From: an uncultured Bacteroidales bacterium
GTDB lineage: Bacteria; Bacteroidota; Bacteroidia; Bacteroidales; JAUNSR01
Assembly: GCA_947074105.1 (NCBI GenBank)
Contig: CAMTON010000001.1
Span: 138,058-202,057 of the forward strand
Direction: 5' to 3'
DNA: 64,000 nt
Each line of letters begins with the position of its first letter. Position 1 is the stretch's first letter. The notes beneath the pieces were generated by a model. That model had not been told where the DNA came from and did no database searches. It was given only the letters and a program-made list of their open reading frames with translations. Positions 5,851 to 64,000 of the stretch are shown here, piece by piece. The translations under genes and the position numbers were made by a program.

Positions 5851-5868
5851 ATACCTAAAATTAGGTAT
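5851..5868. promoter_or_regulatory. 8-2-8 inverted repeat ATACCTAA-AA-TTAGGTAT (candidate operator)
   Basis: Read directly. It shares the ACCTAA/TTAGGT core with 5819-5833 and with the motifs at 12889 and 61802-61947. Confidence 0.4.
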
Positions 5869-6106
5869 TGGTTTTTGTTAAATTTTAAATGAATTTTGTA
5901 TCAGCAAATAATATGGAGTTAATTTTTTAAGGTGTAAAACATAAAAAACACATTACTTTCAAATTTGTTTCAACTTTAAAAACAGAAGCTTTTGCTTTTT
6001 TGTATAAATAAAAAAGCATAACTGCTTTTGATAAATTGTTCTTTTTAATTATTCTTTTTATGTCATGTCTCCCATTAATTTGGGAGACTTTATCTATTTT
6101 AAATAT

Positions 6107-7441: not shown

Positions 7442-7513
7442 GATATGATTCCATAAATTGATTTAAAAATATATTTACAATTATTTCTTTATATATTACA
7501 TCAATACTGTTTG

Positions 7514-7546
7514 ACTGTCTGCTTTCCGGAGCAGACAGTTTTTTTA
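7514..7546 (+). terminator. rho-independent terminator of the PepSY-TM gene
   Basis: ACTGTCTGC (7514-7522) / GCAGACAGT (7531-7539), followed by TTTTTTT. Confidence 0.8.
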
Positions 7547-7591
7547 TCCCCATAACTCATATAATATAATACAGGTAGTTCAGGTAATATA

Positions 7592-7693
7592 GATATCCCT
7601 ATCAATGAAAGACAAATCATAAAAGCATTCCTGCCCTTAATTGATATCCTTATTACTGAAAGACTAATCATAAAAAGCATTCCTGACAGTTTA
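7592..7693. repeat. two tandem copies of an imperfect ~51-bp unit
   Basis: GATATCCCTATCAATGAAAGACAAATCATAAAAGCATTCCTGCCC (from 7592) against GATATCCTTATTACTGAAAGACTAATCATAAAAAGCATTCCTGACA (from 7643). Confidence 0.7.
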
Positions 7694-7733
7694 TGTTACA
7701 ATATATCTTTACAGATAAAATATCAGACAGGAC

Positions 7734-7772
7734 AAAAAAGAGAGCATACCGGAAAACCCGATACACTCTCTT
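7734..7772 (-). terminator. rho-independent terminator after the distal DUF4374-like gene
   Basis: On the minus strand GAGAGUGUAUCGG pairs with CCGGUAUGCUCUC (13 bp including 3 G.U that work only on this strand), followed by TTTTTTG. Confidence 0.7.
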
Positions 7773-7796
7773 ATGGTATAGAACAGTTAAAAGTTT

Positions 7797-9092: not shown

Positions 9093-9122
9093 TATACCTG
9101 TTTTTAATGTTAATTATTTATT

Positions 9123-10418: not shown

Positions 10419-10426
10419 TTTAAAAG

Positions 10427-12811: not shown

Positions 12812-12888
12812 TTTTATTCCTTCCTTATTCTGATAGATGTTAATAACGAGTGCAAAATTGCTTTGATTTCTATAGGTCGGCAATCACT

Positions 12889-12901
12889 ACATTTAGGTAT
12901 T
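12889..12901 (-). promoter_or_regulatory. 13-mer ACATTTAGGTATT, identical to 61838-61850 (candidate shared regulatory box)
   Basis: Exact 13-nt identity upstream of both TonB receptor genes. It reads AATACCTAAATGT on the coding strand and lies 78 nt upstream of the GTG start. Confidence 0.4.
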
Positions 12902-32131: not shown

Positions 32132-33187
32132 TCAATTCTTTTCAATAAAAAGTGTTTGAGTAGGATAAGCGAAATCAAGATTATTCTGATTGAAAAGAGT
32201 AAGTATACGCAGATTTATATCTGTCTGCGTCTGCAGAATATCCTCTCCCTTCTTTATATAATAAATGAAAAGAATTCCAAGACTTGAATCACCGAAAGCA
32301 TTAAAAGAGATAAGGTGCTTTTCGAGGATTGAAGGATGATCACTTGCTATCTGCCCCAGCAGGTCTATTGCAAGCTGCATTTTCTCAGGTTCCGTCTGAT
32401 AAGTAAGACCAAGATTAAGTGTTATTTTACGGGATTCTTCAAGAGAAACATTCTCAACACAGGTATCTGTAATTTTTGAATTCGGAATCGCAACAACAGT
32501 TCCCTGCAGAGTTTTAAGGCGAAAACTCCTTATCCCCACTTCTGTTACCGTTCCGTCAAAACCGGATATACGTATTCTGTCGCCTACTCTAAACGGTTTA
32601 TCTGTAAATATAGTAAGACCTCCAAAGAAATTCGATACTGTATCTTTTGCAGCCATAGCCATGGCAAGACCTCCGATTCCCAGTGAAGCTATAATAGCTC
32701 CTACATTATAACCGGCATTGTTAAGACCGACAATAAGACCTACAGCCCAAATGATATTTATAAGCCATCTTTTGACAACAGGATATATCTGATTATCGAA
32801 ATCCGATTTAGTCTTCTCTGTAAGAGGAAGAATATACAGATCCATAATCGCACCCACACAACGGGTAATCACCCATGATACATTAAAAGAAATAAGTATG
32901 ATATAAGCTTTGGAAAGCCAGTCTTTTATTGAAGGATAAATATTCAGAGTAGTTATTCCGGCCCAAACACCAATTATTATAAGTGCGAATATCACCGGTC
33001 TTTCAAGACGTTCTACCAGTATATCATCAAGCTGCGTCTTTGTTCGGGAAGTCAGTTTCTTAAAAAACTTTGTCGTTACAAGATATAATATCTTTCCCAG
33101 CACGAAGGAACCGAATATTATTGACAGTGCAATAACCCATTCTTTTATCGTATTGCCGTAAAAATCCTTTGATAAAAATTCTACCAT
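32132..33187 (-). CDS. MscS-family mechanosensitive channel
   Basis: Several N-terminal TM helices, then GGLTIFTDKPFRVGDRIRISGFDGTVTEVGIRSFRLKT, the MscS beta-domain signature. Confidence 0.85.
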   Translation of the reverse strand: MVEFLSKDFYGNTIKEWVIALSIIFGSFVLGKILYLVTTKFFKKLTSRTKTQLDDILVERLERPVIFALIIIGVWAGITTLNIYPSIKDWLSKAYIILISFNVSWVITRCVGAIMDLYILPLTEKTKSDFDNQIYPVVKRWLINIIWAVGLIVGLNNAGYNVGAIIASLGIGGLAMAMAAKDTVSNFFGGLTIFTDKPFRVGDRIRISGFDGTVTEVGIRSFRLKTLQGTVVAIPNSKITDTCVENVSLEESRKITLNLGLTYQTEPEKMQLAIDLLGQIASDHPSILEKHLISFNAFGDSSLGILFIYYIKKGEDILQTQTDINLRILTLFNQNNLDFAYPTQTLFIEKN

Positions 33188-33219: not shown

Positions 33220-33373
33220 TAAAAGAATTCTGTCTTTTTATCTTTTATCGATTTACAGATTCATCCAATCAATCATCAATATGGCAGGCAGGCAATAAAG
33301 CAGAAAGTCAGGCAATCTGCATTAAACATTTATTCCCGACAACGGGTATTTATAAATAATAAATCTCAAATGA

Positions 33374-34447
33374 TCAGAAATTATCAATTACTATAGAGAA
33401 ACCGAAATAACCATAACCCGCAGTATTTCTAAACTGACCATAGGGAACAATGCCGTAATATCCATGCAGATAAAATCCCACACTGTTAAGATAATGTCTG
33501 TCTTTAGGAAGAAATTTCCATCCCCAGTATACATTATAGCAATTAGCTCTCGTATGAGGTGAATCAAATAGGTATATCTCACCTGTATGTTTATCTTTAT
33601 CAATTGTGGGATAATGATAACGGGCTCTGTTTCTGAACTCAGCCGACAATACGTTAATCATATTGTTTCTTGTTGCAAAACCGGTAGACCTCTGCCATTC
33701 ATAATTGATATAGAATTCAAAAATATTAGTCATATTTCTGTTGTAGATGGTATCTCCTTCATTGGCATAAATCTTAAACCAGCTTTTAGCAAAATTATTT
33801 CTTGCCATTACTCCGAATTTAAGAGCCATATTATCACGTCTTGTTCCGTTTGGATCGTTAAGACAAACTGCAAGCTCTGAATATTCATAAGATACATTTA
33901 CTCTGGTTATAGGGAAACCGGCATCACGTCTTGAAACCGTAAGTTCATCTCCGATATGCGTACTCTCATGATTATAAGGAGCAAATCTTATAGATAGATT
34001 TTTAAGATATTTATTTCTGTAATCAAAAACCTTAAGTGCTTTTATCTGCCCTACCGCAAAACGGTAATCAGTATTCAGAACAGGTGCTGAGATTGTTTCA
34101 AGATCGAGCCACAGATGAAAAGCAATAGGTATATCTATTCCAATACTCCAGCCCTTTTTCAACTCCATCGACCATATCGGAATAAATGTACCTACCGTAA
34201 CATTTAGATAAGGAGCCATCTTTGTTCCCCACCTATCCGTATGAGTGTATTCTTCTTTTGCTCTTCCGAAGCCTTCTTCCACCCTTGATAGTGGTGATTC
34301 CATCTCTGCAACAAAAGGACGGGCAAACTTAATAGGAACAAACCATCCATACTGGTTTGCATCATTACATATATACTGACTGTAACATTTAGGAGCTATG
34401 ATTAACGCAAATAAGACCGATATTGACAAGCAGAAACGATTCACCAT
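33374..34447 (-). CDS. putative outer-membrane protein (DUF1207-like?)
   Basis: Signal peptide (SVLFALIIAPKCYSQ). Alternating aromatic/beta-strand pattern with a C-terminal F. The NHESTHIGDE motif resembles what I remember of DUF1207; the family call is tentative. Confidence 0.45.
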   Translation of the reverse strand: MVNRFCLSISVLFALIIAPKCYSQYICNDANQYGWFVPIKFARPFVAEMESPLSRVEEGFGRAKEEYTHTDRWGTKMAPYLNVTVGTFIPIWSMELKKGWSIGIDIPIAFHLWLDLETISAPVLNTDYRFAVGQIKALKVFDYRNKYLKNLSIRFAPYNHESTHIGDELTVSRRDAGFPITRVNVSYEYSELAVCLNDPNGTRRDNMALKFGVMARNNFAKSWFKIYANEGDTIYNRNMTNIFEFYINYEWQRSTGFATRNNMINVLSAEFRNRARYHYPTIDKDKHTGEIYLFDSPHTRANCYNVYWGWKFLPKDRHYLNSVGFYLHGYYGIVPYGQFRNTAGYGYFGFSIVIDNF

Positions 34448-51751: not shown

Positions 51752-51797
51752 AAAAAAATAAAGCGCTGTGCATATCATTCATATGCACAGCGCTTTT
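51752..51797 (-). terminator. rho-independent terminator ending the eight-gene operon
   Basis: 15-bp stem AAGCGCTGTGCATAT (51761-51775) / ATATGCACAGCGCTT (51781-51795), followed on the minus strand by TATTTTTTTAAAAAA. Confidence 0.85.
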
Positions 51798-51825: not shown

Positions 51826-52884
51826 TTACAAACCGAAACGCGGATAAACATATTTATCCAGCGGATGAGTAAAGCGAAGTGATGTAGCTGTTACAAATTT
51901 TGAGACTTTTCCACTGAATGTCTCTTCTTCCGCTTCTTCATAAGTTTTTATCAGAGAATAGTCATTTGCATCAACAGCATAATAAACGACTTTTTCTACA
52001 GATGAAACTTTTATCGTCCAGTCAACCATATTGCCATAGATCATCATAGCGTTTTTTTCCGGAATAAACTCCGGAATGCCTATTTTATGGAAATCATACG
52101 TTTTGTTTTCTATCACGTAGAAATTATTCTCCGTATCAGAAGCAAAGCCCAGTGATTTACGGTTACGGAACTCTGTAATGAAAATATTTTTAATTTTTAC
52201 TCCCTCAGGAATATCTATTTTTCTTACATAAGGACGTCCTACGGTCTGCTTTAGGTGGAAAAGATTGTTTTCAGCATCAAGCACCAGATATCCCTCATCA
52301 TAATCTTTCTTTACGGAAGGATTTCCGGACAGTGAATTCGCCGGAAATACGAACCCGCTTTTTGAAAGCATTTCTGTAAACCGGGCGCTTTTATCAGAAT
52401 TAAGCGTATTGGTTTCAGCATCAATAAATTCAATGCTTTTCTTTGTGAAACGGAATACATCGTCGGGAGATTCGAGTTTAACGCGTGAAGACATTGACTC
52501 CATCAGCTGATAGACACCGATCTGCGGTGCATTGATATCCTTAGGATTAATTCTGTAGTAGAAGGATTCATTCTGTGAGTCTTTGTAGGTAACGGGAATA
52601 CCTTTTACAGAATCAGGAAATCGTTCATCTTTAAGAAGTTGACGAGCATAAAAGAACGGATGTATGCTGTCAAGTTCACTCTGAGTGTAAACATTACCGC
52701 TTAAGTCTGTATGCTGCATGCCGTCGGTATAAAGCGATAATGTGAAATCGTCAATCACCGGGCTGTAAAGCACAAACGGCGATTTGTCTTTCTTTGCAGT
52801 CGCAAAAGAGTATAACCATGGCAATTGCCACAGACATAAGAATGCAACTGTTATTATAAGAAGTACGGAACTGAATTTTTTCAT
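51826..52884 (-). CDS. N-terminally anchored protein of unknown function (DUF4857-like?)
   Basis: One N-terminal TM/signal anchor (VLLIITVAFLCLWQLPWLY), then about 320 aa with no motif I recognise. The family name is a memory-based guess. Confidence 0.55.
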   Translation of the reverse strand: MKKFSSVLLIITVAFLCLWQLPWLYSFATAKKDKSPFVLYSPVIDDFTLSLYTDGMQHTDLSGNVYTQSELDSIHPFFYARQLLKDERFPDSVKGIPVTYKDSQNESFYYRINPKDINAPQIGVYQLMESMSSRVKLESPDDVFRFTKKSIEFIDAETNTLNSDKSARFTEMLSKSGFVFPANSLSGNPSVKKDYDEGYLVLDAENNLFHLKQTVGRPYVRKIDIPEGVKIKNIFITEFRNRKSLGFASDTENNFYVIENKTYDFHKIGIPEFIPEKNAMMIYGNMVDWTIKVSSVEKVVYYAVDANDYSLIKTYEEAEEETFSGKVSKFVTATSLRFTHPLDKYVYPRFGL

Positions 52885-52968
52885 TCGTATTATTTTATAA
52901 ACTTTACAAATATGGCGGCTTAATATCTCTGTTCAGGAGAGGTGATCACCGCATTATTGATTTTAATA

Positions 52969-53640
52969 TTAATCCTGTTTCCCTTCCTTGAAACGGGATA
53001 CTGAAAGGAAAACAAACGATGAAGCCATCGCTGTATATAATAACAGGATCGGAAGAAAGCTGTTGTATGCCTCTCCTGCGACATTGTAGAAGAATATCTT
53101 TACAAGAAGTATGCTTACAACCGCATTAAGGATTCTTCTTTTCCATGTAGGTTCAAGTACACACCATGCCGTAAGAAGATATGCAAGTATTCCTGAAAGA
53201 AACCAGACTACCGCACTCAGAATAATATGGTTTGCAATCTGCTCTACAAGAATGATTCTGAGATTTACATAAAAACACGCCAATGTGGCAGAAAAAAGCA
53301 GCAACAACATTACTGCTCCATAGCCTACCATACTCAATATTATCTTTTGTGCATCACAGGGAAGATGAAGTGTCAGTTTCAGGCATTTACGCTGCATCTC
53401 CGGAACAAACTGAGTGATTGCAAACAGTATACCGATAACAGGCGGAACAAATCTTATCATATCAATGAAAAGCACGTCACGCTGAATCATCACTTCCCAG
53501 ATATGTACGGCTCCTTTAAGTTCGATCATTCTGTAGACATTGAATATCAGATATGAAGCAAAACCGAAAAGGGCCAGTGCAGAAAGAATAAATATCCATT
53601 TGGTCTTTATCCATTCTTTATAAAATATAGCTTTTATCAT
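52969..53640 (-). CDS. polytopic membrane protein, probable ABC-2-type permease partner
   Basis: 223 aa with about six hydrophobic helices, immediately downstream of the ABC ATPase. Confidence 0.55.
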   Translation of the reverse strand: MIKAIFYKEWIKTKWIFILSALALFGFASYLIFNVYRMIELKGAVHIWEVMIQRDVLFIDMIRFVPPVIGILFAITQFVPEMQRKCLKLTLHLPCDAQKIILSMVGYGAVMLLLLFSATLACFYVNLRIILVEQIANHIILSAVVWFLSGILAYLLTAWCVLEPTWKRRILNAVVSILLVKIFFYNVAGEAYNSFLPILLLYTAMASSFVFLSVSRFKEGKQD

Positions 53641-53665
53641 TTCTGTTTCTGATTATAAATTATGA

Positions 53666-54550
53666 TTAATATTTTCCGGTAAGACCGATAAAGGCATCCT
53701 CCAGATTCAGAATTTCGGTACGAAAATTATCATTAGGTATCTGCTGATTATGAAAATAAGATCTTATGTCATTTTCCGGAAGAAATGTATAGACTTCGAA
53801 ATTATTTCCGATCTGGGCAGGATTATAGAAATCTGAATTGGCTTCAAACTTATATCTCTCAGGAAGAGAGCAACTCACTTTCCTGAAGTTGTCAAGAAGA
53901 TGCTGAACAGGCAACTGAGTAAGTATCTTTCCGTAATCCATAATTATACAGTCATCGATAAGACGCTCCATATCCTGAATAATATGTGAAGTAAGGAAAA
54001 CCGTTTTGTCTTCACTGTTTGCATATTCCTTAAGATAGTCGACAAAAAGACGGCGGTATCCGGGATCTAATCCCAAAGAAAAATCATCAAGAATAAGGAG
54101 TTCCGGGTCCTGAGCAAGAATAAGACCAAGAGCTACCTGAGAACGCTGACCGCATGACATTCTTGAAATCTTCTGTTTAGGAGCCACTTTAAGACGGCTC
54201 ATAAGTTCATAATATGCTTCACGTTTCCAGTTCGGGTAAAAGCGGGAATAGAACTTCTCTATCTGTTCGATATTCATAAAGTCATACTGAACATGTCCTT
54301 CAATAAGAAGACCTATCTTAGCTCTCAGTTCAGGTCGCATATCTACGATATTCTCTCCGAAAATCAGACATTCGCCTTCTTTTGGTTTAAGATATCCGCT
54401 GAGTATATTGATAGATGTTGTTTTTCCTGTTCCGTTTTTACCAAGCAATCCGAGGATTCTGCCTTTAGGAACAGAAAAACTAAGATTTTCGTAAATCTTT
54501 CGTTTATTGTAATAGTGCGTCAGATTTCTGCACTCGATTATATTTTCCAT
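53666..54550 (-). CDS. ABC transporter ATP-binding protein
   Basis: Walker A GKNGTGKTT, signature MSCGQRSQV, Walker B LLILDDFSLGLD, and an H-loop TSH. Confidence 0.9.
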   Translation of the reverse strand: MENIIECRNLTHYYNKRKIYENLSFSVPKGRILGLLGKNGTGKTTSINILSGYLKPKEGECLIFGENIVDMRPELRAKIGLLIEGHVQYDFMNIEQIEKFYSRFYPNWKREAYYELMSRLKVAPKQKISRMSCGQRSQVALGLILAQDPELLILDDFSLGLDPGYRRLFVDYLKEYANSEDKTVFLTSHIIQDMERLIDDCIIMDYGKILTQLPVQHLLDNFRKVSCSLPERYKFEANSDFYNPAQIGNNFEVYTFLPENDIRSYFHNQQIPNDNFRTEILNLEDAFIGLTGKY

Positions 54551-54559
54551 AATTTTTTT

Positions 54560-55162
54560 CTATTTAGTCAACAAGAGAAACAATATCGGAACAAGAATGC
54601 CTATTGCAAATTCTATTCCGCCTCTTCCGATAAAACCTTTACGTCCTTTCATCATAGTGAATCCGGTGATAACGACTATGATCATTGCGATACAAAACAG
54701 ATCGGAAAACCATGTCCACCACTTTCCCGGATTGTAATGAAGCTTTACCATATCGCTTACAAGGTGGCGTTTAGAAAGAATTTCAATAACTCCGCTACCT
54801 GAAGTCTGATTAAGTTCGAGGCCTGAACCGCCCTTGATGAAAACCTTCATCTGGTCCGGCTTCGGATAATAATGCTTTGTATAGTTTTTTTCCTGTCCGT
54901 AAGGTTTCAGAAGCTCGATAACCTCTTCACGGGAAAGCTGAGTTCCCGGTTGATAAGCATTAACAGAGAATTCTATTCTCTCTACCGTATAGTGAGGATT
55001 TACCTTATCTCGATGATTCATATATACACCTGAAACAGCATAAATTATCAGTATTCCGGAAAATATGAAAGAGAGATCTCTGTGAATAAGCCGGCTCCAT
55101 TTTCTGAAAAGTGAGCCGGCTTTCTTTTTATCCTGTCTGGGATTTATCTTATTATTATTCAT
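54560..55162 (-). CDS. short PepSY-associated TM-helix protein
   Basis: FRKWSRLIHRDLSFIFSGILIIYAVSGVYMNHRD is the PepSY_TM-type N-terminus, and two more C-terminal TM helices follow. The track start at 55171 is a TTG; I use the ATG at 55162. Confidence 0.7.
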   Translation of the reverse strand: MNNNKINPRQDKKKAGSLFRKWSRLIHRDLSFIFSGILIIYAVSGVYMNHRDKVNPHYTVERIEFSVNAYQPGTQLSREEVIELLKPYGQEKNYTKHYYPKPDQMKVFIKGGSGLELNQTSGSGVIEILSKRHLVSDMVKLHYNPGKWWTWFSDLFCIAMIIVVITGFTMMKGRKGFIGRGGIEFAIGILVPILFLLLTK

Positions 55163-55181
55163 TAAATCCAAATATGCTTAC

Positions 55182-55766
55182 TTACTGTATTTCGTAGCTT
55201 TTAGCTGAAATATGATAGAAAGAAAGATAGTCTTTGCCGTTTTTCTCTTTCTGCTCGGCAATTCTCTGACGGAAGCCGTCGATACGCGCTTGAGGAGAGT
55301 TGGCTGTTTCGCCTCTTGCTTTCTTTTCTGTAGAACATCCAGCCTCTCCGTCTCCGTGAGCATCAGCTGTCTGCTGTTTTACTGTTTCTTCCCATTTCTG
55401 AAGATAAGCCTCATCGATTTTTTCTTCAACAAGAGTTCCTTTTACCTTAACAATGCTGTTTACGCATTTCTGATCGAATTTACCAAGTTCTCCGGATTCG
55501 ATTCTAAGAGTATATTTGTCGCTGCTGCCCATAAGGAAGATCTTTCTTCCGCCATGTTTGCAGATATGTGTACAAACGCCTTCAAGTTCGATTTCCTGTC
55601 CTATCAGTTTATCTCCGTTTGTAAGAACGTCGTCAATCTGGTAAACAGTGATCTCTTTTGATTCTTTAGATGAATCTTCTTTAGCTGATGCTGTTCCTGT
55701 TGAACAAGAAGAAAATGTTACAAGTGCGATTAAAGCCGTAGCAAAAAGTGATGTCAAATTTTTCAT
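55182..55766 (-). CDS. small lipoprotein with Cys/His cluster, unknown function
   Basis: Lipobox (LVTFSSCST). EGVCTHICKHGGRKIF lies in a beta-rich half, followed by a highly charged tail (AHGDGEAGCSTEKKARGE). Confidence 0.6.
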   Translation of the reverse strand: MKNLTSLFATALIALVTFSSCSTGTASAKEDSSKESKEITVYQIDDVLTNGDKLIGQEIELEGVCTHICKHGGRKIFLMGSSDKYTLRIESGELGKFDQKCVNSIVKVKGTLVEEKIDEAYLQKWEETVKQQTADAHGDGEAGCSTEKKARGETANSPQARIDGFRQRIAEQKEKNGKDYLSFYHISAKSYEIQ

Positions 55767-55797
55767 AATACATTAATTTTTTCTATTTGCTCTTTTA

Positions 55798-57396
55798 TCA
55801 GAAGTTAACCCCGATTTTAAGAGCTATGTTATTTCTATTTTCTTTTAAATCTGAAATTTTAAATTCATTCTCGTATTTCATCTCAATAAAATAACCGAGA
55901 CTGTTTTTATTCATTGTAAAGCGAAGTATAAGCTCCGGTGAAACTCTTTCTGAAGTCAGATAATCATATTCAGTATCCATAAATATATCCTGATATTTAG
56001 GTGCTCCTGTATCGGAAGACGGAGTGACATATACTCCGTCAATATATTTATCTCCTGAGCCGGATCTGTATTTTATTCCGGGAGAAATCATTAAATTGAC
56101 CTTACCGAAATTTTTCTGATATGATATCTTAACCTTATGTTCATAAAGATCAAGTTTCTGTGTCCTGTAGTAAGGATAAATAATGGAGTTAATCTCACGT
56201 TCAGTATATGAACTTCCTATAGTCAGATTCCATTCAGGTGCATTATTAACATTTCCCCATCCAAGAGAGTAACCTCCGCTTATTCGGGTAAAACGCTTCT
56301 CCCCTACCAGGTTCTGTCCGTAATATTCGATCACTGTATTTCCGGAGGCTGAAGTTTCGTTTCTCCATGAATTCTCATAATTATCAATAGCGGTTTTTTC
56401 AAATCCCAGTACAAGCTGCTGAAATGTCTTATTCCCGGTATATATAAATGAGAGGTTTTCGTTTATTGTACTACCGTCATGTTCGGTATAAACGATTGAA
56501 GTCGATGACTTCTTTCCGAAATATCCGTCCATAGAGGAATATGTCAGATCATTAAAAAGTTTCAGTCGTTTTGATATCTGCCACTCAGTCTGCCATCCAC
56601 CGGAATGAATATTTTCAACAAACGGATTATTTTCGCCTTTGGCCGTATAGCCGTTTGCATCAAAAAGTTCCTGGCGTCCGCTGAAAGCACCGAAATTTAT
56701 CAGCGTCATATACTGCTGATCGGTAGTACCGTAGATATTAAACTTAAGACCTTCGACAAAACGGTTGTATTTATAATGCAGCCCGAATCTTATCTTTTCT
56801 GAAGGCATATATGATACTCCTCCGGCAAAATTCAGATCAAGGACCTTATTGGTATGACGCAGATCCTTCATACGCGCCATATTTATGGCATTGTAATCCA
56901 GTTTAAATCCAATAGCAAACTTCTCCGACAGTCTGTGAGAAAGCGCTCCCATAACAGAATATCTTTCCGTCTTACGGTCTCCTTTATTGTCGGAATCCAT
57001 GAATGTGAGATCGAACGGACGATTGTAATATGACAGAAACGCAGAACCAACAACATCCGTTTCATTTTCAGAGACAAACGATGCTTTGGAGTAAAGCATT
57101 GTTTCAGGTGAAAGTCTGAAATACGCTTCACCAGCAACACTTATATCATATTGCTTATCGGCAACATTATAATTTACAAGTTTACCGTTAAGTGAATTAT
57201 ATGAAACATAAGCTCTTCCGGCCTGCTGCACAACAGGAATACGGTAAAGTTGTGATACATTATCACTCTTCATCCATCCTGTTGAATCTACGACAAGATC
57301 GAAGTCGTAGGTCAGTGTTTCACTTTTTCCTGCAAAGGCAGCAGGAAGAAGTGAAAGGAAAAGAATAGTTTTTTTGAATTTCTGCAATTCTGCCAT
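55798..57396 (-). CDS. outer-membrane beta-barrel protein (DUF6850-like?)
   Basis: Signal peptide, alternating beta-strand pattern throughout, C-terminal IALKIGVNF. The family name is from memory. Confidence 0.6.
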   Translation of the reverse strand: MAELQKFKKTILFLSLLPAAFAGKSETLTYDFDLVVDSTGWMKSDNVSQLYRIPVVQQAGRAYVSYNSLNGKLVNYNVADKQYDISVAGEAYFRLSPETMLYSKASFVSENETDVVGSAFLSYYNRPFDLTFMDSDNKGDRKTERYSVMGALSHRLSEKFAIGFKLDYNAINMARMKDLRHTNKVLDLNFAGGVSYMPSEKIRFGLHYKYNRFVEGLKFNIYGTTDQQYMTLINFGAFSGRQELFDANGYTAKGENNPFVENIHSGGWQTEWQISKRLKLFNDLTYSSMDGYFGKKSSTSIVYTEHDGSTINENLSFIYTGNKTFQQLVLGFEKTAIDNYENSWRNETSASGNTVIEYYGQNLVGEKRFTRISGGYSLGWGNVNNAPEWNLTIGSSYTEREINSIIYPYYRTQKLDLYEHKVKISYQKNFGKVNLMISPGIKYRSGSGDKYIDGVYVTPSSDTGAPKYQDIFMDTEYDYLTSERVSPELILRFTMNKNSLGYFIEMKYENEFKISDLKENRNNIALKIGVNF

Positions 57397-57405
57397 ATTT
57401 ATTTA

Positions 57406-58725
57406 TTAATATTTTAAAGAAGAGCCGGCTCTCTGATGGAAATCATTTGAGGAATTGTTTGTATCCTGATAAATGATTCTTGCACCAAGTCTGATTGAAG
57501 CTTCAGCATCGATTCCGGAAGGATCTGTTGTACCGTTGTCCGATACTGTGCCAAGAATATAATTGTAAACAAGTTTTCCTGAATTTTCATCAAGAGCTTC
57601 AGTAGCATCTTTATCTACATTTCTGTATAGAGTATAACCCTGTCCCGCAGTTAAATTCACATATCCGGCATCAACGGCTGAAGTAAATCTTTTTACATTA
57701 TTTGTAGCTCCGTATCTGAAAACTTCAACACCATCGATTATCCAGCTTACAGGTACTTTTTTACGAACCTGAGTTGCAGAACCTCCGTAATAATCAAGAT
57801 TGTCTGCATTTTCGTTGAACGCCTCAGGTGTAGTCCCCTGTGGTGCGAAAAGGAATAAAGCCGGTGATGTGTTACTGAATGCCCAGGCATTTCCTGTTCC
57901 GTATTTGAATCCCGGAAGATATTGTGATGTCGGGATGTTAGCCGAAGGAGCAGGGTGGTAGTTCGCATTATCATAAACCTCAGGAGCATAAGTCACATAA
58001 TATTCCGATTTGCTTAAATCAATAGAGTTAGAATAAGTAATCGTATTATCATTTGCATTATTCAGAACAACTACGATCTGCTCTCCCGGATTAAGGATAG
58101 TTGAATTTGAGAAATAAAAATATCCAAGTCCTGCCGGAATCCAGCCTTCAGCCTCATAAAACAAAGATCCGTTCTGAACATCTGAGTTATTTACAGTAGA
58201 GTTATAAGGAAGAACCATACCAACACAAAGGTTTTCAAGATCAGTAGCTTCGTCAGAATTATTATAGATGACGAAATATTTATCATAATGATAAGTACCT
58301 GAACCGTCATCTTTCTGACAACCACCGTTATATATTTCTTTAATGATAATCTGACTTACTACGCTTTCTGTAAGATTAAGAGAGAAAGGATTTTCATTCT
58401 GTTCCACAACAGTCATATTTGTCAGAACACCTGTAAAGACAATGCTTTTTCCGGTTTCTTTTCTTTTATCCGTTGATGATACTTCATAAAGACCGACAGG
58501 AACTTCAAATACGGCTATACCTGATGTGTTAGTTTCCGATTCATAAGCGATACCTGTCTGAGATACTGCTTTTACAGCAACACCTTCACGTGTTTCATAT
58601 CCCGATTCAGAAGGATATACAAGCTGAACAGCTACTGTAGCTGTCTTGTATCCTACTTTTTCGTCATCACTACATGCGTAAGTTAAAAGCAGAAGTGAAA
58701 GAAAGAGGTAATAAACTTTTTTCAT
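57406..58725 (-). CDS. surface lipoprotein with Ig/CarboxypepD_reg-like and lamin-tail-like domains (DUF4876-like?)
   Basis: Lipobox (LLLLTYACSD). N-terminal beta-sandwich (GIAVFEVPVGLYEV). IIIKEIYNGGC..DKYFVIYNNSDEATDL resembles an LTD core. Confidence 0.6.
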   Translation of the reverse strand: MKKVYYLFLSLLLLTYACSDDEKVGYKTATVAVQLVYPSESGYETREGVAVKAVSQTGIAYESETNTSGIAVFEVPVGLYEVSSTDKRKETGKSIVFTGVLTNMTVVEQNENPFSLNLTESVVSQIIIKEIYNGGCQKDDGSGTYHYDKYFVIYNNSDEATDLENLCVGMVLPYNSTVNNSDVQNGSLFYEAEGWIPAGLGYFYFSNSTILNPGEQIVVVLNNANDNTITYSNSIDLSKSEYYVTYAPEVYDNANYHPAPSANIPTSQYLPGFKYGTGNAWAFSNTSPALFLFAPQGTTPEAFNENADNLDYYGGSATQVRKKVPVSWIIDGVEVFRYGATNNVKRFTSAVDAGYVNLTAGQGYTLYRNVDKDATEALDENSGKLVYNYILGTVSDNGTTDPSGIDAEASIRLGARIIYQDTNNSSNDFHQRAGSSLKY

Positions 58726-58753
58726 AATGATTTTATTTTGGATTAATTGTTTG

Positions 58754-61723
58754 CTAAATTTTTATTTTAAGTGACAGGCCGTAGTTGAACGACGGAATAT
58801 AACTTGAGTTGAAAAGAGATGATTCATTATTATTCCAGCTGTTTGTAACTTTTCCCAGATTATTAAGAAAGTTATTCGCATAAAAAGACAGAAGAAAATG
58901 TTTTCCTATCTCTTTTGAAACCGTCAGGTTAGCAGTGAAATAAGGCGAAAGCTTATTTCTGTTGAAATAATATGATGTATTCGATTTCGAAACAAGTTTT
59001 GCCAGTTCATTATACAGTTCAGTATCATTCTCACGGGCCCAAAGGAATTTTTCTTCGAAAGGTATAAGAGTAGTCATATCATCATAACTTGTATAATAGA
59101 CAGGATAAACCGCTACATATGAATCTCCTCCGTATATATCTCCCGCAGATCCGATATAATCGCTTCTGTCGGATAATACTCTTCCGTAACTTTTACCATT
59201 GTATTCTGACAGATATCTTGTAGAATGATAAAGCGTGGATTCAACTCTTAAGGAAACAAGAAGTTTTATTTTCGGAATATTTGTTGTTGCCGTTAGATTC
59301 AGATTGACTTTTCTTGTTTCAGATCCGTTAGAGACTCCGCTTACACCGTTAGAACCTGCATAGATTCCTATATATTTATAAGGATCTCCGTTAGCCATAT
59401 TCTGAGAAGAAGTAGGCAGATATGAAGTAAGTTCTTCGTTAACTCCTTTGTAATGATAAAAGTTACCATCAAGACGGAATGATGTATATATTGATTTTAT
59501 ACGTCCTATATCTGCAATCCATTCAAGACCTTCTCTTAATATGGGCGATATATTAGAAGCTGTTGAATTGCTTTTATAAGTTTTTTTCTCACTGTATTCA
59601 AGTTCTGCAGGAGAATATATTCCGTTTTTATCATACATCGTTACGATTCCGGTTTCCCTGTCAACATAATACTGACGTTCGTTTACAGGTATTGAAGTCC
59701 CTTCGATAGCTCTCTGATCAGTAAACTTATAGCTGTAGGGAGTATACTGATTTGTAAGGGTATATCCGTTATAACTTCTGTTTCTGTAAGCATTAAGAGA
59801 TATTTTTACTTTACCAAGCTGAATGTCTCCTCCTATTTCCATTTGTCTCGTTCTCTGCATTTTCAGATCCGGATTATAAATTCTTTCGGAAGGCATTATG
59901 TAATAAGCATAATATATCGTTCCGTCTGCAAGAGCTCCGGGAGCGAAAGTAAGTCTCTGGGCATAAGAAGGATCAGGATAAAGGACAGAAAAAGCAGGCA
60001 GTTTTACCGATTCTCCTATTCCGCCTCTCAGTTTCAGATTACTTACAAAAGAATAAGGATTATCAATTATAGTATATGTACCGCTGAATCTGGGTGATAA
60101 AGCAGAAGTTGTCCCGTAATCGGAGCCGTCGACTTTAGTCACATCATATCGTATACCACCGTTAAGCTGAAGAAGAGTATTTCCAAGAGGAAAAGTTAGA
60201 TTATCCTCAGCATAAAGAGCTCCGTTTTTCATAAAAGGGATTTCATCAAAACGATATTCTCTCCATGTCGGAGTATATAATGGATCATCATAAAAGATAC
60301 CGCGTCCCAGATTGCCTGTTGTAGAAAAATTAGCACCTACTTTTATCTTATTGAAAAATCTGCCTATTGTAAGATTATGATTCAATTTCAGAGAAGCACC
60401 ATATTCAATCGGTCTGTCCTGACAATATTCTGTTTCATACCAGTAACCGGCCGGAATTAAGGAAATATCAGCTTCCGGATCCTTTTCAAAATCAGTAGCT
60501 ATAAAATATCCTTCTTCTGTTCCGTGAAAAGCAAGAGTGGAAGTCGAAGATGATTTATTTGTCTTTACCTCATGTTCCTTATCTGCATAATTGACATAAG
60601 CTTTTGCCTCTATGCGGGTCAGATAAGGTTTGTTTATCATCCAGTCAAAACCGGCATGAGCACGTATGGCGTTATCTTTCTGACGGGTATACGTATCAGT
60701 GAAATTATCCGGATCGGATTTTGAATTATATCCTCCTACATTTCCGGAAACACCCGCATTGATAATAAAAGGCGTTGAAGTCCCTTTTCCAATAGTATTA
60801 TTATAGGATATTGTCAAACCGTTTCTTGAATACTTTGTATAAGGAGATGCGATATCCGCCGTTGAAGTAGTACTTTCCAGTCCGAAGTTAATATGACCGG
60901 CATTGCTCCCAAGATCAAAACCTTTTGAAACAGAAGCTGATTTAAGTCCGGGCGCCGAAGAGAAGGAAATATCAAACGGAGTATATCCTTTTTTTGTATT
61001 TATAAGAACCATACCTCCCGCTACATCTCCATATTCAACAGAGGGAATTCCTGTTATAACTTCTACAGATTCAATGTTTGACATCTGTATATTTCTTGTA
61101 TCAGTTCCGTATAAACTGTTAAATGATCCGCGTGTTCCGTCAACGCCCGACATTGTAGCATTGTTTGAAAGACGTACACCGTCAATCTCAACCGCTGTCA
61201 TAAATGTAGGATTACCAAGTTCTCCGGATTCAGATCTGATTTCGAATCTTTTTGCTCCGCTTGTAAGATTATTGGTTTTGGCGGTCTTTCCCCCAGGTAA
61301 AAGCGATGTTATATCAGTCACTGCCGTTACCTGTTGATGCTCAAGAGCCTTGCTGTCGATAACATATGATGTAGCTGAATTATATTTATTCTCTTTTGCC
61401 GTTACAACAACTTCTTCAAGAGCAAGATTGTCAGGAGAAATATTAAGTAGAAAATTATTATCCTTATCTGTTACAGTAATACTGAATTCGGTTTTCTTAT
61501 ATCCCAGACATGTTACAATTACTGTATGATTTCCTTCCGGCACATTATTTATTACAAATTCACCTTTATCATTCGTCACACTCCATAACCGGCGCTCAGG
61601 CAGAGTCACTACAGCTGCCTCAATAGCCAGTTTCTTATCTGCATCAAATATTCTGCCATTGACGTTTGCGGCAACAGCATAAGCAGATATAAAAACCAAT
61701 ATTAATGACAACCACACTCTCAT
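58754..61723 (-). CDS. TonB-dependent receptor with CarboxypepD_reg-like N-domain
   Basis: NVNGRIFDADKKLAIEAAVV..VTNDKGEFVINNVPEGNHTV (CRD), a plug (VIDSKALEHQQV..DITSLLPGG) and a large barrel. The track start is a TTG; I use the ATG at 61723 (MRVWLSLILVFISAYAVA). Confidence 0.85.
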   Translation of the reverse strand: MRVWLSLILVFISAYAVAANVNGRIFDADKKLAIEAAVVTLPERRLWSVTNDKGEFVINNVPEGNHTVIVTCLGYKKTEFSITVTDKDNNFLLNISPDNLALEEVVVTAKENKYNSATSYVIDSKALEHQQVTAVTDITSLLPGGKTAKTNNLTSGAKRFEIRSESGELGNPTFMTAVEIDGVRLSNNATMSGVDGTRGSFNSLYGTDTRNIQMSNIESVEVITGIPSVEYGDVAGGMVLINTKKGYTPFDISFSSAPGLKSASVSKGFDLGSNAGHINFGLESTTSTADIASPYTKYSRNGLTISYNNTIGKGTSTPFIINAGVSGNVGGYNSKSDPDNFTDTYTRQKDNAIRAHAGFDWMINKPYLTRIEAKAYVNYADKEHEVKTNKSSSTSTLAFHGTEEGYFIATDFEKDPEADISLIPAGYWYETEYCQDRPIEYGASLKLNHNLTIGRFFNKIKVGANFSTTGNLGRGIFYDDPLYTPTWREYRFDEIPFMKNGALYAEDNLTFPLGNTLLQLNGGIRYDVTKVDGSDYGTTSALSPRFSGTYTIIDNPYSFVSNLKLRGGIGESVKLPAFSVLYPDPSYAQRLTFAPGALADGTIYYAYYIMPSERIYNPDLKMQRTRQMEIGGDIQLGKVKISLNAYRNRSYNGYTLTNQYTPYSYKFTDQRAIEGTSIPVNERQYYVDRETGIVTMYDKNGIYSPAELEYSEKKTYKSNSTASNISPILREGLEWIADIGRIKSIYTSFRLDGNFYHYKGVNEELTSYLPTSSQNMANGDPYKYIGIYAGSNGVSGVSNGSETRKVNLNLTATTNIPKIKLLVSLRVESTLYHSTRYLSEYNGKSYGRVLSDRSDYIGSAGDIYGGDSYVAVYPVYYTSYDDMTTLIPFEEKFLWARENDTELYNELAKLVSKSNTSYYFNRNKLSPYFTANLTVSKEIGKHFLLSFYANNFLNNLGKVTNSWNNNESSLFNSSYIPSFNYGLSLKIKI

Positions 61724-61801
61724 AGACAAAAGGAATAATATCCGATATAAGCATTTTTATAATTCGGATTGTAAAATTATCAATAACACTAAAACCTGTA
61801 T

Positions 61802-61819
61802 ATACCTAAAATCCGGTAT
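61802..61819. promoter_or_regulatory. ATACCTAAAATCCGGTAT, 16/18 identical to the 5851-5868 inverted repeat
   Basis: Read directly. Confidence 0.35.
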
Positions 61820-61837
61820 TTTTTATTCAAAACCATA

Positions 61838-61862
61838 ACATTTAGGTATTAGACTACCTAAA
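61838..61862. promoter_or_regulatory. ACATTTAGGTATT 13-mer (identical to 12889-12901) within the inverted repeat TTTAGGTA-N6-TACCTAAA
   Basis: Read directly; lies 115 nt upstream of the receptor ATG. Confidence 0.4.
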
Positions 61863-61939
61863 TATGATATATCTTATAAATATTAAATTTATTAATTTTA
61901 TTTAATCTATACAACTAATTAATTAATATTTCATCCTAT

Positions 61940-61947
61940 TACCTAAA
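61940..61947. promoter_or_regulatory. additional TACCTAAA copy
   Basis: Read directly; the fourth copy within 150 nt. Confidence 0.25.
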
Positions 61948-61988: not shown

Positions 61989-62029
61989 AAAAAAGTCGGG
62001 AGAAGAGTCTCACGACTTTTCTCCCGACT
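61989..62029 (-). terminator. rho-independent terminator after the SusD-locus lipoprotein gene
   Basis: 11-bp stem AGTCGGGAGAA (61994-62004) / TTCTCCCGACT (62019-62029), followed on the minus strand by TTTTTTG. It separates the SusD unit from the receptor operon. Confidence 0.8.
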
Positions 62030-62052: not shown

Positions 62053-62934
62053 TTATTTTGACATTGTCATACCAAATGTTCCGAAAGACCCCTGGTCTAC
62101 AGTAACTTTGATATTCATTTTAATTGTACCGCTACAAGCGTCAATTGTTCCTGAACCTTCTACACACATATTTGTATAACCCCAAGACCATACAGAACCT
62201 TCGATGATTACCTGTTTTGCAACAGTTACAGTATATGTATCAGGATCTACAGTTATAGTAAAGATACCGTTAGGTGCTACTTCTTCGAAAAGACCTGATA
62301 CCTGAAGTTCTGTATCAGAGATTTTTTCTACTTCTACCTGATATGTTTTTTCCCACCAGTCCGGGTCTGCCATCCATGTTGTTCCTGTGAAGTCATCAAG
62401 ATGAATAGGACATACAACAGGATATCTTACTGAATAAGAATATGATCTTCCGTCAACTCTCCATCCTGTCATGTTTCTATTATTGAAATCTGTTTCTGCA
62501 GTCCATCCTTTGATAACGAAACCGTCTTTCAACGTTACGTCAGTAGTGAAATACATTTCCTGACCTTCGAATGGTCCGTCAATGCCAAGAGCTGTATAAG
62601 CTTCTTCGATATTAAGAGATACTTCTGCAGGGAAAGAAGTGATCTTTCCGCCAACAGGAGTCGATACCCATTCGTAATCCGGTGTTCTAAGAACACATAG
62701 TAGCTGTGCGTGATCCATCATTGAATAGTCACCCTGCTGTGTAGGGATTGTAAGCTTCACTCTGAAATCTCCGTCAGTGCTACCCTGGCTTAATACGGCT
62801 GTTGAACCGTCAGCTCTGTATATATCGATAACAACACCGTTTCTCACATCTTCCAGTGGATAAGGAAGATCCTGGTCGCAGCTCCAGAACATCAAAGCCG
62901 CCATCAACGTTATATATAATTTAAATAATTTCAT
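62053..62934 (-). CDS. PUL-associated surface lipoprotein of unknown function
   Basis: Lipobox (LMFWSCDQ), beta-rich, directly downstream (27 nt) of the SusD-like gene. Confidence 0.6.
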   Translation of the reverse strand: MKLFKLYITLMAALMFWSCDQDLPYPLEDVRNGVVIDIYRADGSTAVLSQGSTDGDFRVKLTIPTQQGDYSMMDHAQLLCVLRTPDYEWVSTPVGGKITSFPAEVSLNIEEAYTALGIDGPFEGQEMYFTTDVTLKDGFVIKGWTAETDFNNRNMTGWRVDGRSYSYSVRYPVVCPIHLDDFTGTTWMADPDWWEKTYQVEVEKISDTELQVSGLFEEVAPNGIFTITVDPDTYTVTVAKQVIIEGSVWSWGYTNMCVEGSGTIDACSGTIKMNIKVTVDQGSFGTFGMTMSK

Positions 62935-62961
62935 AATGTCTTTTTTCTTGATTAAAGTTTT

Positions 62962-64000
62962 TTATTTATCCCAGAAAATAAGTGAATTCTGCAGGATACG
63001 ACCTTCGTTAGTAATGTTAGGGTTTCTCGATACTTCAGAGAAAGGATACCACATTGCTCTTGGGAAACCGATGATAGATTTCAAAGGAATATTCACTTCT
63101 TCAGGAGTACCTGCTTTTTCGCTTGAATATGGAGAAACTGCATTTCTAAGACCTGTCTTAGGAACTACAGGATAACCTGTTCTTCTCATATCTGTGTAAG
63201 CTTCTACAGCGTTAAAGAAGTTTGCGATCCATTTCTGAGTCATTACGATATTAAGTTTTCCTTCTGCATCAGCAGCATCGTATTTTTTAAGAACTCGCGA
63301 AACGAAATCATCCGTTTCAGAAGCGCTGATTGAAGGAACATCAATCCCACCCTTAGCTGCCTGAGATACAGAGTTTACATGATAAATAGCTCTTCTGATA
63401 CCATCTTCAAGTTCTGCTTTTGCATCACCAGAAATGCCTTCAGTAAGGATAAGTTCTGCTTTAAGGAAAGGAACAGAGTAAGCCTGAAGCATTTTGTCAG
63501 GAGCTGTACCTGTACCTGAGCTTGCTCCACATCTTCCACCTGAACCGTTATCGAATTTACCACCACATGGATAGATTCCGATAAATGTAGAAGTTTCTCT
63601 CTGTGCATTCGAGCTGTAGCTTGAACCTGAAGCGAAGAAGATAGAAACGAATGCTTCGTGACGATAATCTGTTTCATTCTGAGCTTCCGCAGTTGCTGAA
63701 GAAAGCTGATTTACCCAGTAGTAAGGAACACGAGGGTCTTCAATATTTTCGAAAGGATTTTCTGTTACGTTATAAGTAAGACCTTTCATTGTCTCATAGA
63801 TCCACGGGCTGATATAGTAAGTTGACTGTCCGCCAAGGTATTCATCAACGAAAGCGGCGTTTCTTTCATCCGGATTATCCTGTGTTGAGTGTTTCAACTG
63901 CCAGTCTTCATCGTTTCCGATAAAGTTATTCTCGTTAAGAAGCTGAGTCAACTTAGAGTTCCACTCTGTAATATCCGCTTTTGCATTACGGGAGTTTACA
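62962..64000 (-). CDS. SusD/RagB-family nutrient-binding lipoprotein, C-terminal part (5' end beyond the window)
   Basis: QKWIANFFNAVEAYTDMRRTGYPV is a typical SusD-like C-terminal block. The frame stays open through 64000 (..VNSRNAKADITEWNSKLTQLL), so the TTG at 63951 is not the real start. Confidence 0.8.
   Translation of the reverse strand, partial: VNSRNAKADITEWNSKLTQLLNENNFIGNDEDWQLKHSTQDNPDERNAAFVDEYLGGQSTYYISPWIYETMKGLTYNVTENPFENIEDPRVPYYWVNQLSSATAEAQNETDYRHEAFVSIFFASGSSYSSNAQRETSTFIGIYPCGGKFDNGSGGRCGASSGTGTAPDKMLQAYSVPFLKAELILTEGISGDAKAELEDGIRRAIYHVNSVSQAAKGGIDVPSISASETDDFVSRVLKKYDAADAEGKLNIVMTQKWIANFFNAVEAYTDMRRTGYPVVPKTGLRNAVSPYSSEKAGTPEEVNIPLKSIIGFPRAMWYPFSEVSRNPNITNEGRILQNSLIFWDK

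Follow-up and report, generated by a model that had tools for sequence, protein, structure and literature searches.

Gut Bacteroidales contend with pathogens and with their host for iron, and to our knowledge only their Xus and Hmu iron systems are understood. The XusABC system of Bacteroides thetaiotaomicron (BT2063-2065) combines a non-SusC TonB receptor whose N-terminal domain is CarboxypepD_reg-like, a surface lipoprotein as its partner and, in the inner membrane, a protein of the PepSY type; it is induced by iron limitation. In a structural paper on Xus from 2026 the step after siderophore reduction is given to an unknown inner membrane protein. Here we describe an operon at positions 51826-61723 of a 64,000-nucleotide stretch of DNA from an uncultured Bacteroidales bacterium (contig CAMTON010000001.1 of assembly GCA_947074105.1, positions 138,058 to 202,057 of the forward strand); this whole stretch is referred to as the window. 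The operon resembles XusABC in this composition and probably also in its induction, and it carries the same operator as a Xus-like locus in the window. We class it with a conserved Bacteroidales cluster that has been noticed before and is uncharacterised, with TonB-dependent iron uptake as its probable role and an unusual inner module. The reading we favour, with somewhat better than even confidence, is an iron-starvation-induced, TonB-dependent iron acquisition pathway that is built from three modules, releases iron reductively in the periplasm and includes an ATP-driven step at the inner membrane. Iron acquisition is indicated by the combination of a variable outer-membrane trio with a conserved inner pathway, by chelator induction, by the operator shared with Xus-like genes, by the PepSY-type partner and by a lipoprotein with conserved cysteines and histidines.

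The operon also differs from XusABC. XusB, the lid of the Xus receptor, belongs to DUF4374 whereas the corresponding protein of the operon belongs to DUF4876, and the DUF6850 barrel occurs only here. According to Pfam, DUF4374 is absent from the operon and, within the window, confined to the separate Xus-like locus. The PepSY protein of XusABC is of the approximately 450-amino-acid form related to the four-helix FoxB, whereas that of the operon is of the three-helix PF16357 form with 200 amino acids. Xus also has no lipoprotein with an oligonucleotide/oligosaccharide-binding (OB) fold and conserved cysteines and histidines, no ATP-binding cassette (ABC) module of the ABC-2 class and no beta-propeller. 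The Xus-like locus of the window (6065-12883) consists of a receptor gene on the minus strand (10427-12883, with the real start probably at a GTG near 12811), two tandem genes for XusB-like DUF4374 lipoproteins (9123-10418 and 7797-9092) and, on the opposite strand, a gene for a 458-amino-acid PepSY_TM protein (6065-7441) that matches the FoxB structure 7ABW.

The operon comprises eight open reading frames on the minus strand, all at the coordinates given by an earlier sequence-only reading of this DNA and separated, from 5' to 3' along the operon, by exactly the gaps it had listed (28, 9, 31, 19, 9, 25 and 84 nucleotides). With the ATG starts chosen by the gene callers in identical metagenomic contigs, which were adopted here, the products have 989, 439, 532, 194, 200, 294, 223 and 352 amino acids. 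The claim that these products span the whole envelope is borne out, and a Pfam search confirmed the labels DUF4876, DUF6850 and DUF4857 given in that reading. The GC content of the operon (37.6%) is close to that of the rest of the window (37.4%). From the spacing of the genes and from the published co-induction of all nine genes of the B. thetaiotaomicron counterpart we infer that the eight genes are co-transcribed.

This counterpart was found in a B. thetaiotaomicron locus (L040) that contains all eight families in the order of the window, plus one extra protein. By composition and gene order, rather than by locus-tag look-up, it corresponds to BT3625-BT3633. The order receptor, DUF4876 protein, DUF6850 protein, OB-fold lipoprotein, PepSY-TM-like protein, ATPase, permease and DUF4857 protein is the same in both, the only addition being the surface protein BT3630 (541 amino acids, Mfa-like and Fib_succ_major), which has no equivalent in the window. 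The proteins of the inner module are 51-71% identical to those of the window, and orthologous function of the two loci is expected on these grounds. The outer-membrane trio is only 23-36% identical, and its ligand is probably a different one. Induction of the nine B. thetaiotaomicron genes was 37-128-fold with 150 µM dipyridyl in brain heart infusion with 5 µg/mL hemin, and the DUF4876/receptor set of Porphyromonas gingivalis, PG1019-22, rose 21-214-fold in low iron (PMC10434189). The link to metals is thus stronger than the sequence-only reading had claimed. As late as 2026 the DUF4876/receptor pair of P. gingivalis is described in print as a transport system that has yet to be characterised, and the signal peptide of BT3630 serves as a secretion tool in Bacteroides engineering (PMC11554821). 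No functional study of a BT3625-33-type locus was found in the literature. The statement that no characterised system has this composition therefore holds within the literature searched, in which one account from 2023 stops at chelator induction and another at lid prediction.

The promoter region provides a second connection to iron. Four of the six copies of TTTAGGTA in the window fall within 61803-61947, and what had been described as a motif-rich promoter could be refined to one operator, ATACCggattttaGGTAT, at 61802-61819 on the minus strand. This is an inverted repeat of the form ATACC-N8-GGTAT; further TTTAGGTA half-sites lie on the same strand at 61841-61862 and 61940-61947. The operator stands 22 nucleotides upstream of TAATTTTA (61772-61779, minus strand, about 45 nucleotides upstream of the ATG), which matches the consensus TAnnTTTG and is a probable Bacteroides-type -7 box as read from the sequence. 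Exactly three perfect operator sites occur in the window (5851-5868, 12883-12900 and 61802-61819; one copy has GYGAT as its second half), and these belong to the promoters of the XusC-like gene (6065-7441), of the XusA-like receptor gene (10427-12883) and of this operon. At the XusA-like promoter the operator is likewise 22 nucleotides from a -7-like box; the spacing at the XusC-like promoter is similar and less clear. The suspected motif common to the operon and the Xus-like locus is thus real, is present at both Xus-like promoters and is phylogenetically conserved. Orthologous promoters of all receptor classes carry the operator, or a variant with GYGATTG as second half, at the same 22-nucleotide distance from TAnnTTTG, and both modules carry a copy where the outer and the inner one are transcribed as separate units. 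Related loci totalling 1.37 Mb contain 51 perfect sites, as against 1-10 in shuffled sequences, and 38 of these 51 fall within promoter windows of the system, which make up 2.8% of the sequence. From this distribution the element looks like the binding site of an iron-responsive regulator of Bacteroidales. Operator copies outside the system are few in the fetched loci, and the genes beside them are uninformative. A match of nine positions in ten, ATACCCGTTGTCGGGAAT, lies at 33332-33349 between the minus-strand genes 32132-33187 and 33374-34447, and may point to another gene of the regulon or have arisen by chance. In one of the closest relatives of the operon, L008, an inverted repeat GGGAT...ATCCC is found about 100 nucleotides upstream of the receptor gene in place of the operator, and another, L010, has a similar GGGATAG element; these may belong to a different regulator or be a diverged site.

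Conservation was surveyed with an alignment of DUF4857 that was used to scan one genome per species. This yielded 80 loci, the genes of which were mapped by tblastn with the eight window proteins and then with hidden Markov models built from several receptor classes. The same families occur together in 68 of the 80 loci, and almost all of the other 12 are short or cut-off contigs. The cluster is present in Bacteroides, Phocaeicola, Parabacteroides, Alistipes, Mediterranea, members of the Dysgonomonadaceae and others; the gene set is therefore kept well beyond the source genome. The inner five genes (lipoprotein, PepSY-TM-like protein, ATPase, permease and DUF4857 protein) keep this order on a single strand in almost all loci with sufficient flanks. 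Their products share about 50-60%, 50-55%, 69-80%, 45-60% and 48-60% identity, respectively, with those of the window. The receptor-DUF4876-DUF6850 trio is adjacent in 68 of the 80 loci and its identity to the window is merely 23-59%, falling into classes at roughly 45-59%, 36% and 24-26%. Its position also varies: it can lie upstream of the inner genes, be inverted (L018, L053, L062 and L074) or lie downstream (L046, L050, L055, L058 and L073). Divergent trios next to conserved inner genes are the pattern of variable receptors that feed a common downstream pathway.

The lipoprotein/PepSY pair is separable as well. Among distant relatives in environmental contigs (L087-L166) the lipoprotein gene is directly followed by a PepSY_TM_like_2 gene in 60 of 77 contigs (e.g. 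L125:9881-14336). Housekeeping genes surround these pairs, and neither a receptor trio nor DUF4857 or matching ABC genes lie in their vicinity. In environmental contigs apparently of Bacteroidota the pair is thus also a stand-alone unit. Since the outer-membrane trio moves independently and the lipoprotein/PepSY pair occurs alone, the operon is a composite of three modules, namely the outer-membrane trio, the lipoprotein/PepSY pair and the trio of ABC-2 ATPase, permease and propeller. Of the proposed single eight-gene unit, the colinearity and conservation of the genes stand, but three separable modules describe it better. In some loci, although not in the window, an extra large surface protein is encoded between the outer-membrane trio and the inner module, either Mfa-like/Fib_succ_major (L040:5512-7137) or with InlB-repeat/GLUG domains and 1000-1400 amino acids (L013:3004-7197 and L032:3782-6799). 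In L046, L050, L054 and L055 there are no lipoprotein and PepSY genes, the ATPase-permease-DUF4857 genes have their own operator copy and the outer-membrane trio lies downstream; in L046, the only one of these loci covered by a Pfam scan, a 722-amino-acid M6-peptidase-like protein is encoded after the ATPase, permease and DUF4857 genes.

The first gene of the operon encodes the TonB-dependent receptor (open reading frame 58754-61729, minus strand, with the gene-caller ATG at 61723 giving 989 amino acids). It has a signal peptide and an N-terminal CarboxypepD_reg-like domain, followed by the plug (PF07715, 43 bits) and the barrel (PF00593, TonB_dep_Rec_b-barrel, 71.6 bits), both above the Pfam cut-offs; plug and barrel together identify a TonB-dependent transporter. 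By eye, the sequence EEVVVTA near residue 105, in the stretch that links the N-terminal domain to the plug, resembles a TonB box. NCBIfam returned just a weak siderophore-receptor plug match and, at E <= 0.01, no match to the SusC/RagA model TIGR04056. Judged by these families the receptor is not SusC-type, and its partner is a DUF4876 protein, not SusD. This partner, a surface lipoprotein of 439 amino acids (57406-58725, minus strand), contains the DUF4876 domain (85 bits) and a lamin-tail (LTD) match of 26.9 bits, which is under the cut-off of 34.3 bits. Its lipobox LTYAC is followed by the acidic residues SDDEK, resembling a lipoprotein export signal. For the DUF4876 proteins BT3632 and BT1938, AlphaFold-Multimer predicts lids on their receptors, and their proximity to receptor genes is conserved across dozens of genera (bioRxiv 10.1101/2023.03.17.533168); the window protein is accordingly a predicted receptor lid. 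The third protein (532 amino acids; 55798-57396, minus strand) has a signal peptide and a DUF6850 match of 119 bits, and is presumably an outer-membrane beta-barrel. Its gene always accompanies the receptor and DUF4876 genes. Sequence searches of the PDB with the receptor and with the DUF6850 protein gave nothing usable.

The 194-amino-acid lipoprotein (55182-55766, minus strand) has no Pfam or NCBIfam family, and a sequence search of the PDB gave nothing usable. Its AlphaFold model, with a predicted local distance difference test score (pLDDT) of 79, consists of an OB fold and a helical hairpin, and the Foldseek matches are OB folds. The C65-x3-C69-x-H71 cluster (CTHICKH) that had been noticed in the sequence is present and conserved by alignment. 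Within Bacteroidales C65, C69, H71, C101 and C144 are invariant, and H67 and H137 nearly so. Across the wider family (969 cluster representatives) the sole invariant residues are G63, H67, C69, H71, F97 and G110. The conserved core is thus a triad, H67-x-C69-x-H71 (H-x-C-x-H), while C65, C101 and C144 are not kept outside Bacteroidales. Distant relatives carry inserts rich in histidine, aspartate and glutamate, and together with the H-x-C-x-H pattern these suggest a metal-ion site. The lipoprotein is a candidate metal binder or electron acceptor, and it probably faces the periplasm because no acidic residues follow the lipid cysteine. Two other interpretations of the cluster, binding of haem c and a Rieske-type centre, were rejected: C-x3-C-x-H is not CxxCH, a pre-assembled Fe-S cluster is unlikely in a Sec/lipoprotein substrate, and C65, C101 and C144 are unconserved outside Bacteroidales. 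Two apparent fusions of the lipoprotein domain were also discarded. In P0303 (with DUF4857) a signal peptide and lipobox lie in the middle of the chain; in P0305 (with a histidine kinase) an N-terminal signal peptide and lipobox precede a cytoplasmic kinase without a membrane helix. The topology is implausible in either case, and both are probably gene-calling artefacts or chimeric assemblies and hence offer no Rosetta-stone evidence.

The adjacent gene encodes the short PepSY-TM-like protein (open reading frame 54560-55171, minus strand, with the ATG at 55162 and 200 amino acids). It matches PF16357 (PepSY_TM_like_2, 50 bits) and PF03929 (32.5 bits) above the Pfam cut-offs, the latter match covering only profile positions 93-160 of 295, and hydropathy indicates three helices. 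H27, H50 and H142 are located at helix ends and are invariant among 20 aligned orthologues; in a set of 69 orthologues H50 and H142 stay invariant, and H27 reaches at least 90% conservation. In a weak profile alignment H142 falls on the LH motif of the window's XusC-like protein. PDB searches with the single sequence and with a profile gave no usable match. The protein shares with FoxB-type reductases the PepSY_TM signatures, conserved histidines at the ends of membrane helices and, probably, the context of iron uptake. It does not have the FoxB/XusC architecture, which comprises a full-length PF03929 region of about 380-460 amino acids with four helices and two PepSY domains. On these features the short PepSY protein is a candidate haem-b ferric reductase or electron conduit.

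The last three genes encode the ABC module. The ATPase (294 amino acids; 53666-54550, minus strand) belongs to ABC_tran in Pfam. Its best NCBIfam matches, PmtA, DrrA, GldA and NodI, are all far under their cut-offs, and among solved structures it is closest to the nucleotide-binding domains of ABCA3, ABCA1 and ABCA7; these relationships assign it to the ABC-2 (type V) class, in the DrrA/NodI/ABCA lineage. The permease (223 amino acids; 52969-53640, minus strand) has about six helices by hydropathy, in agreement with the earlier six-helix claim. It has no Pfam or NCBIfam family, its ABC2_membrane_2 match is weak (E = 0.2) and a profile search of the PDB returned no match. An invariant motif, P80-E-M...K88-L-T-L-H-L-P94 in alignment A3, resembles E...TL.L.P. 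The DUF4857 protein (352 amino acids; 51826-52884, minus strand; 342 bits) has a single N-terminal membrane helix with an invariant WQLPW.Y.F motif, as seen by hydropathy and in alignment A1. In its AlphaFold model (pLDDT 83.6) the helix is followed by a periplasmic domain that is predicted to resemble a beta-propeller; Foldseek matched WD40 and YVTN propellers with a probability of about 1 and low TM-scores (0.2-0.3). NCBIfam searches at E <= 10 with the four unclassified proteins of the operon gave nothing relevant. Neither Pfam nor NCBIfam detected a canonical periplasmic substrate-binding-protein family in the operon, and with an ATPase of the ABC-2 lineage the module does not classify by its families as a type I/II binding-protein-dependent importer.

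For the inner module, the Lut/PedA1A2BC systems of M. extorquens and P. putida are the best functional analogue. They, too, have a TonB receptor together with an ATPase and permease of the ABC type, and their periplasmic components are a beta-propeller protein and a binder; inward transport of a metal (lanthanide) has been shown experimentally. Homology does not extend beyond the generic ATPase domain, as the ATPase of the operon scores 99 bits against TIGR03864 with its cut-off of 302 bits, and the DUF4857 protein, permease and lipoprotein show no relevant NCBIfam matches even at E <= 10. Furthermore, the Lut/Ped binder is classical whereas that of the operon is an OB-fold lipoprotein, the propeller of the operon is membrane-anchored, and Lut/Ped has no PepSY partner. 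The conclusion that a missing binding protein makes the ABC module exporter-like is shaky on two counts: the 194-amino-acid lipoprotein looks like a periplasmic metal binder, and PedA1A2BC/Lut import metal. A further parallel is NosDFY-NosL, in which a metal-binding lipoprotein feeds an ABC-2 ATPase with its six-helix permease and the periplasmic protein that docks on this permease; it shows that an ABC-2 module is able to act as a metal hand-off machine. NosD is a beta-helix and not a propeller, and the apo-enzyme target of the Nos system has no counterpart in the operon. None of the operon proteins matches the NosD, NosL or NosY families in Pfam or NCBIfam.

These components can be arranged into the following pathway. 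The receptor with its DUF4876 lid and DUF6850 barrel would capture an iron-bearing ligand and bring it into the periplasm; the trio is taken as the ligand-specific part because it diverges fast and is swapped between genomes. The short PepSY-TM protein would then carry electrons across the inner membrane, presumably via haem on its invariant histidines, so that Fe(III) is reduced and released, and the H-x-C-x-H site of the OB-fold lipoprotein would receive the released metal ion or serve as redox partner. Finally, the ABC-2 ATPase, the permease and the anchored DUF4857 propeller would perform an ATP-driven step on the metal, most likely delivery across or at the inner membrane, or alternatively disposal of the used ligand. 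Of this picture, the gene content with its conservation and modularity, the conserved residues, the folds and the operator in common with the Xus-like genes are observed, and chelator induction is published for the B. thetaiotaomicron counterpart. We infer what the substrate is, that the PepSY protein binds haem, that reduction takes place, that the lipoprotein binds metal and which way the ABC module transports.

Several observations weigh against this proposal. Dipyridyl is not strictly iron-specific. The ATPase falls in the ABC-2 class, whose members are mostly exporters, and the operon includes no canonical substrate-binding protein. The PepSY protein has half the size of FoxB and XusC and neither its sequence nor its profile matches FoxB (7ABW). 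The PepSY gene is missing in L009, L061 and L085, and both the PepSY and lipoprotein genes are missing in L046, L050 and L055; the ABC and outer-membrane parts can therefore do without reduction. The best match to a classical Fur box in the promoter has 12 of 19 positions, which is no better than in shuffled sequences. L008 and L010, the two closest relatives with the same receptor type, show no recognisable operator, so that the element is common but not universal. Finally, the receptor BT3633 and the lid BT3632, the sole genes of the B. thetaiotaomicron locus treated in the preprint concerned, had no phenotype in 519 fitness assays (bioRxiv 10.1101/2023.03.17.533168).

Part of this evidence would also fit other functions. 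The ABC-2 module could be a true exporter of spent chelator or of a self-made metallophore, with iron entering elsewhere, for example by FeoB. The class of the ATPase and the lack of a canonical binding protein agree with export, the recycling of pyoverdine by an efflux pump of Pseudomonas is a precedent, and in seven environmental loci the lipoprotein/PepSY pair adjoins a different ABC-2 transporter, an unrelated fusion of about 1030 amino acids that combines TerB, an ABC ATPase and an ABC-2 membrane domain. However, the locus encodes no periplasmic adaptor, outer-membrane exit duct or biosynthesis genes, its permease is minimal with 223 amino acids, and the Lut/PedA1A2BC precedent shows that such an architecture can import. 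Export is unlikely, though less so than the other alternatives. The chelator recycling envisaged in the sequence-only reading is not supported, as evidence neither for nor against it was found. A role in haem or porphyrin acquisition, in which the receptor and lid import haem, or part of a haem protein, and the inner module either deals with haem like the ABC-2 transporter CcmAB or extracts its iron, appears rather improbable. It would accord with the dependence of Bacteroidales on haem, with the fact that, in P. gingivalis, PG1019 and PG1020 rise alongside the hmu genes for haem uptake when haem is limiting and when hemH is mutated, and with the large opening, of about 20 Å, left by the predicted DUF4876 lid. 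Yet the B. thetaiotaomicron counterpart was induced in medium with 5 µg/mL hemin, so haem does not repress it, and P. gingivalis has the outer-membrane part only. In addition, the H-x-C-x-H motif and the inserts rich in histidine, aspartate and glutamate look like a metal-ion site and not a haem pocket, and the operator is common to siderophore-type Xus-like genes.

The metal itself could be another transition metal (Zn, Cu, Co or Ni), with the lipoprotein as a metallochaperone that hands the ion to the propeller and ABC-2 module by mechanotransduction as in NosL-NosDFY. Cys/His triads and His-rich loops are typical of Zn, Ni and Cu sites, dipyridyl chelates further divalent metals, the OB-fold protein PA4066 (DUF3299) is among the structural matches of the lipoprotein, and NosDFY-NosL likewise joins an ABC-2 module to a periplasmic partner and a lipoprotein. 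Against this count the missing homology to NosD, NosL and NosY, the operator in common with the Xus-like xenosiderophore genes and the reductase-like PepSY-TM partner, which fits Fe(III)/Fe(II) chemistry best; we regard this function as no more probable than haem uptake. The absence of a phenotype for BT3633 and BT3632 in the fitness assays would be compatible with no role in metal nutrition at all, that is, with an envelope stress, detoxification or surface-protein export system that responds to chelator stress. This is very improbable, because the TonB receptor, the PepSY-TM protein, the Cys/His lipoprotein and the Xus-shared operator jointly indicate metal uptake, and the fimbrillin-like BT3630 is an optional insert, which neither the window nor the majority of loci contain.

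Within the proposed iron acquisition pathway the inner five genes may, as a tentative suggestion held with less conviction than the pathway as a whole, form a new route for iron from the periplasm on to the inner membrane, in which the PepSY protein and lipoprotein reduce and capture iron, the ABC-2 module and propeller use ATP to pass it into or across that membrane, and the operator marks an iron-starvation regulon. If this is true, the route would fill the step after siderophore reduction, and ATACC-N8-GGTAT would mark an iron-starvation regulon of gut Bacteroidales. The cluster is among the most strongly chelator-induced loci of B. thetaiotaomicron and is spread over major gut genera. With its unusual machine of ABC-2 module, beta-propeller and OB-fold lipoprotein it is a concrete candidate for the exit of iron from the periplasm, the shared operator is a handle on an iron-responsive regulator and its regulon, and the module structure separates ligand specificity, in the outer-membrane trio, from the common chemistry of the inner modules. 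Relative to the literature searched, the new elements are the division into three modules, the wide occurrence of the lipoprotein/PepSY pair as a unit, the H-x-C-x-H signature, the propeller fold predicted for DUF4857 and the operator common to Xus-like genes.

The operon is bounded by terminators, both of which had been predicted and are real. At the 3' end an intrinsic terminator on the minus strand (51760-51796) has a stem of 16 pairs, 7 of them G-C, and ends in a T-rich tail. At the 5' end the intrinsic terminator of the upstream gene 62053-62934, also on the minus strand, occupies 61989-62029; the arms of its inverted repeat (61994-62009 and 62014-62029, 16 nucleotides each) are 94% complementary, and on the minus strand a T run (TTTTTT) comes after them. 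By its sequence it marks the 5' boundary of the transcription unit. Terminator-like sites inside the operon are weak and not in excess (10 found, 7.7 +/- 3.0 in shuffled sequences). The 84-nucleotide gap between the permease and DUF4857 genes (52885-52968) exceeds the approximately 20-50 nucleotides of most orthologous loci, and a modest hairpin of about -11 kcal/mol is possible there.

Identical proteins are confined to metagenome assemblies from ENA and Logan; among species-representative genomes the best match has 76% identity (L007, a metagenome-assembled genome of an uncultured Bacteroidales bacterium). The neighbouring genes at 2956-5214 and 62053-63951 are unrelated to the operon; one of them encodes an S8 peptidase with a C-terminal sorting domain of the type IX secretion system. 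The gene directly upstream (62053-62934) encodes a lipoprotein of 293 amino acids without a family, and the 329-amino-acid product of the open reading frame 62962-63951 is merely presumed to be SusD-like, as the possible end of a polysaccharide utilisation locus.

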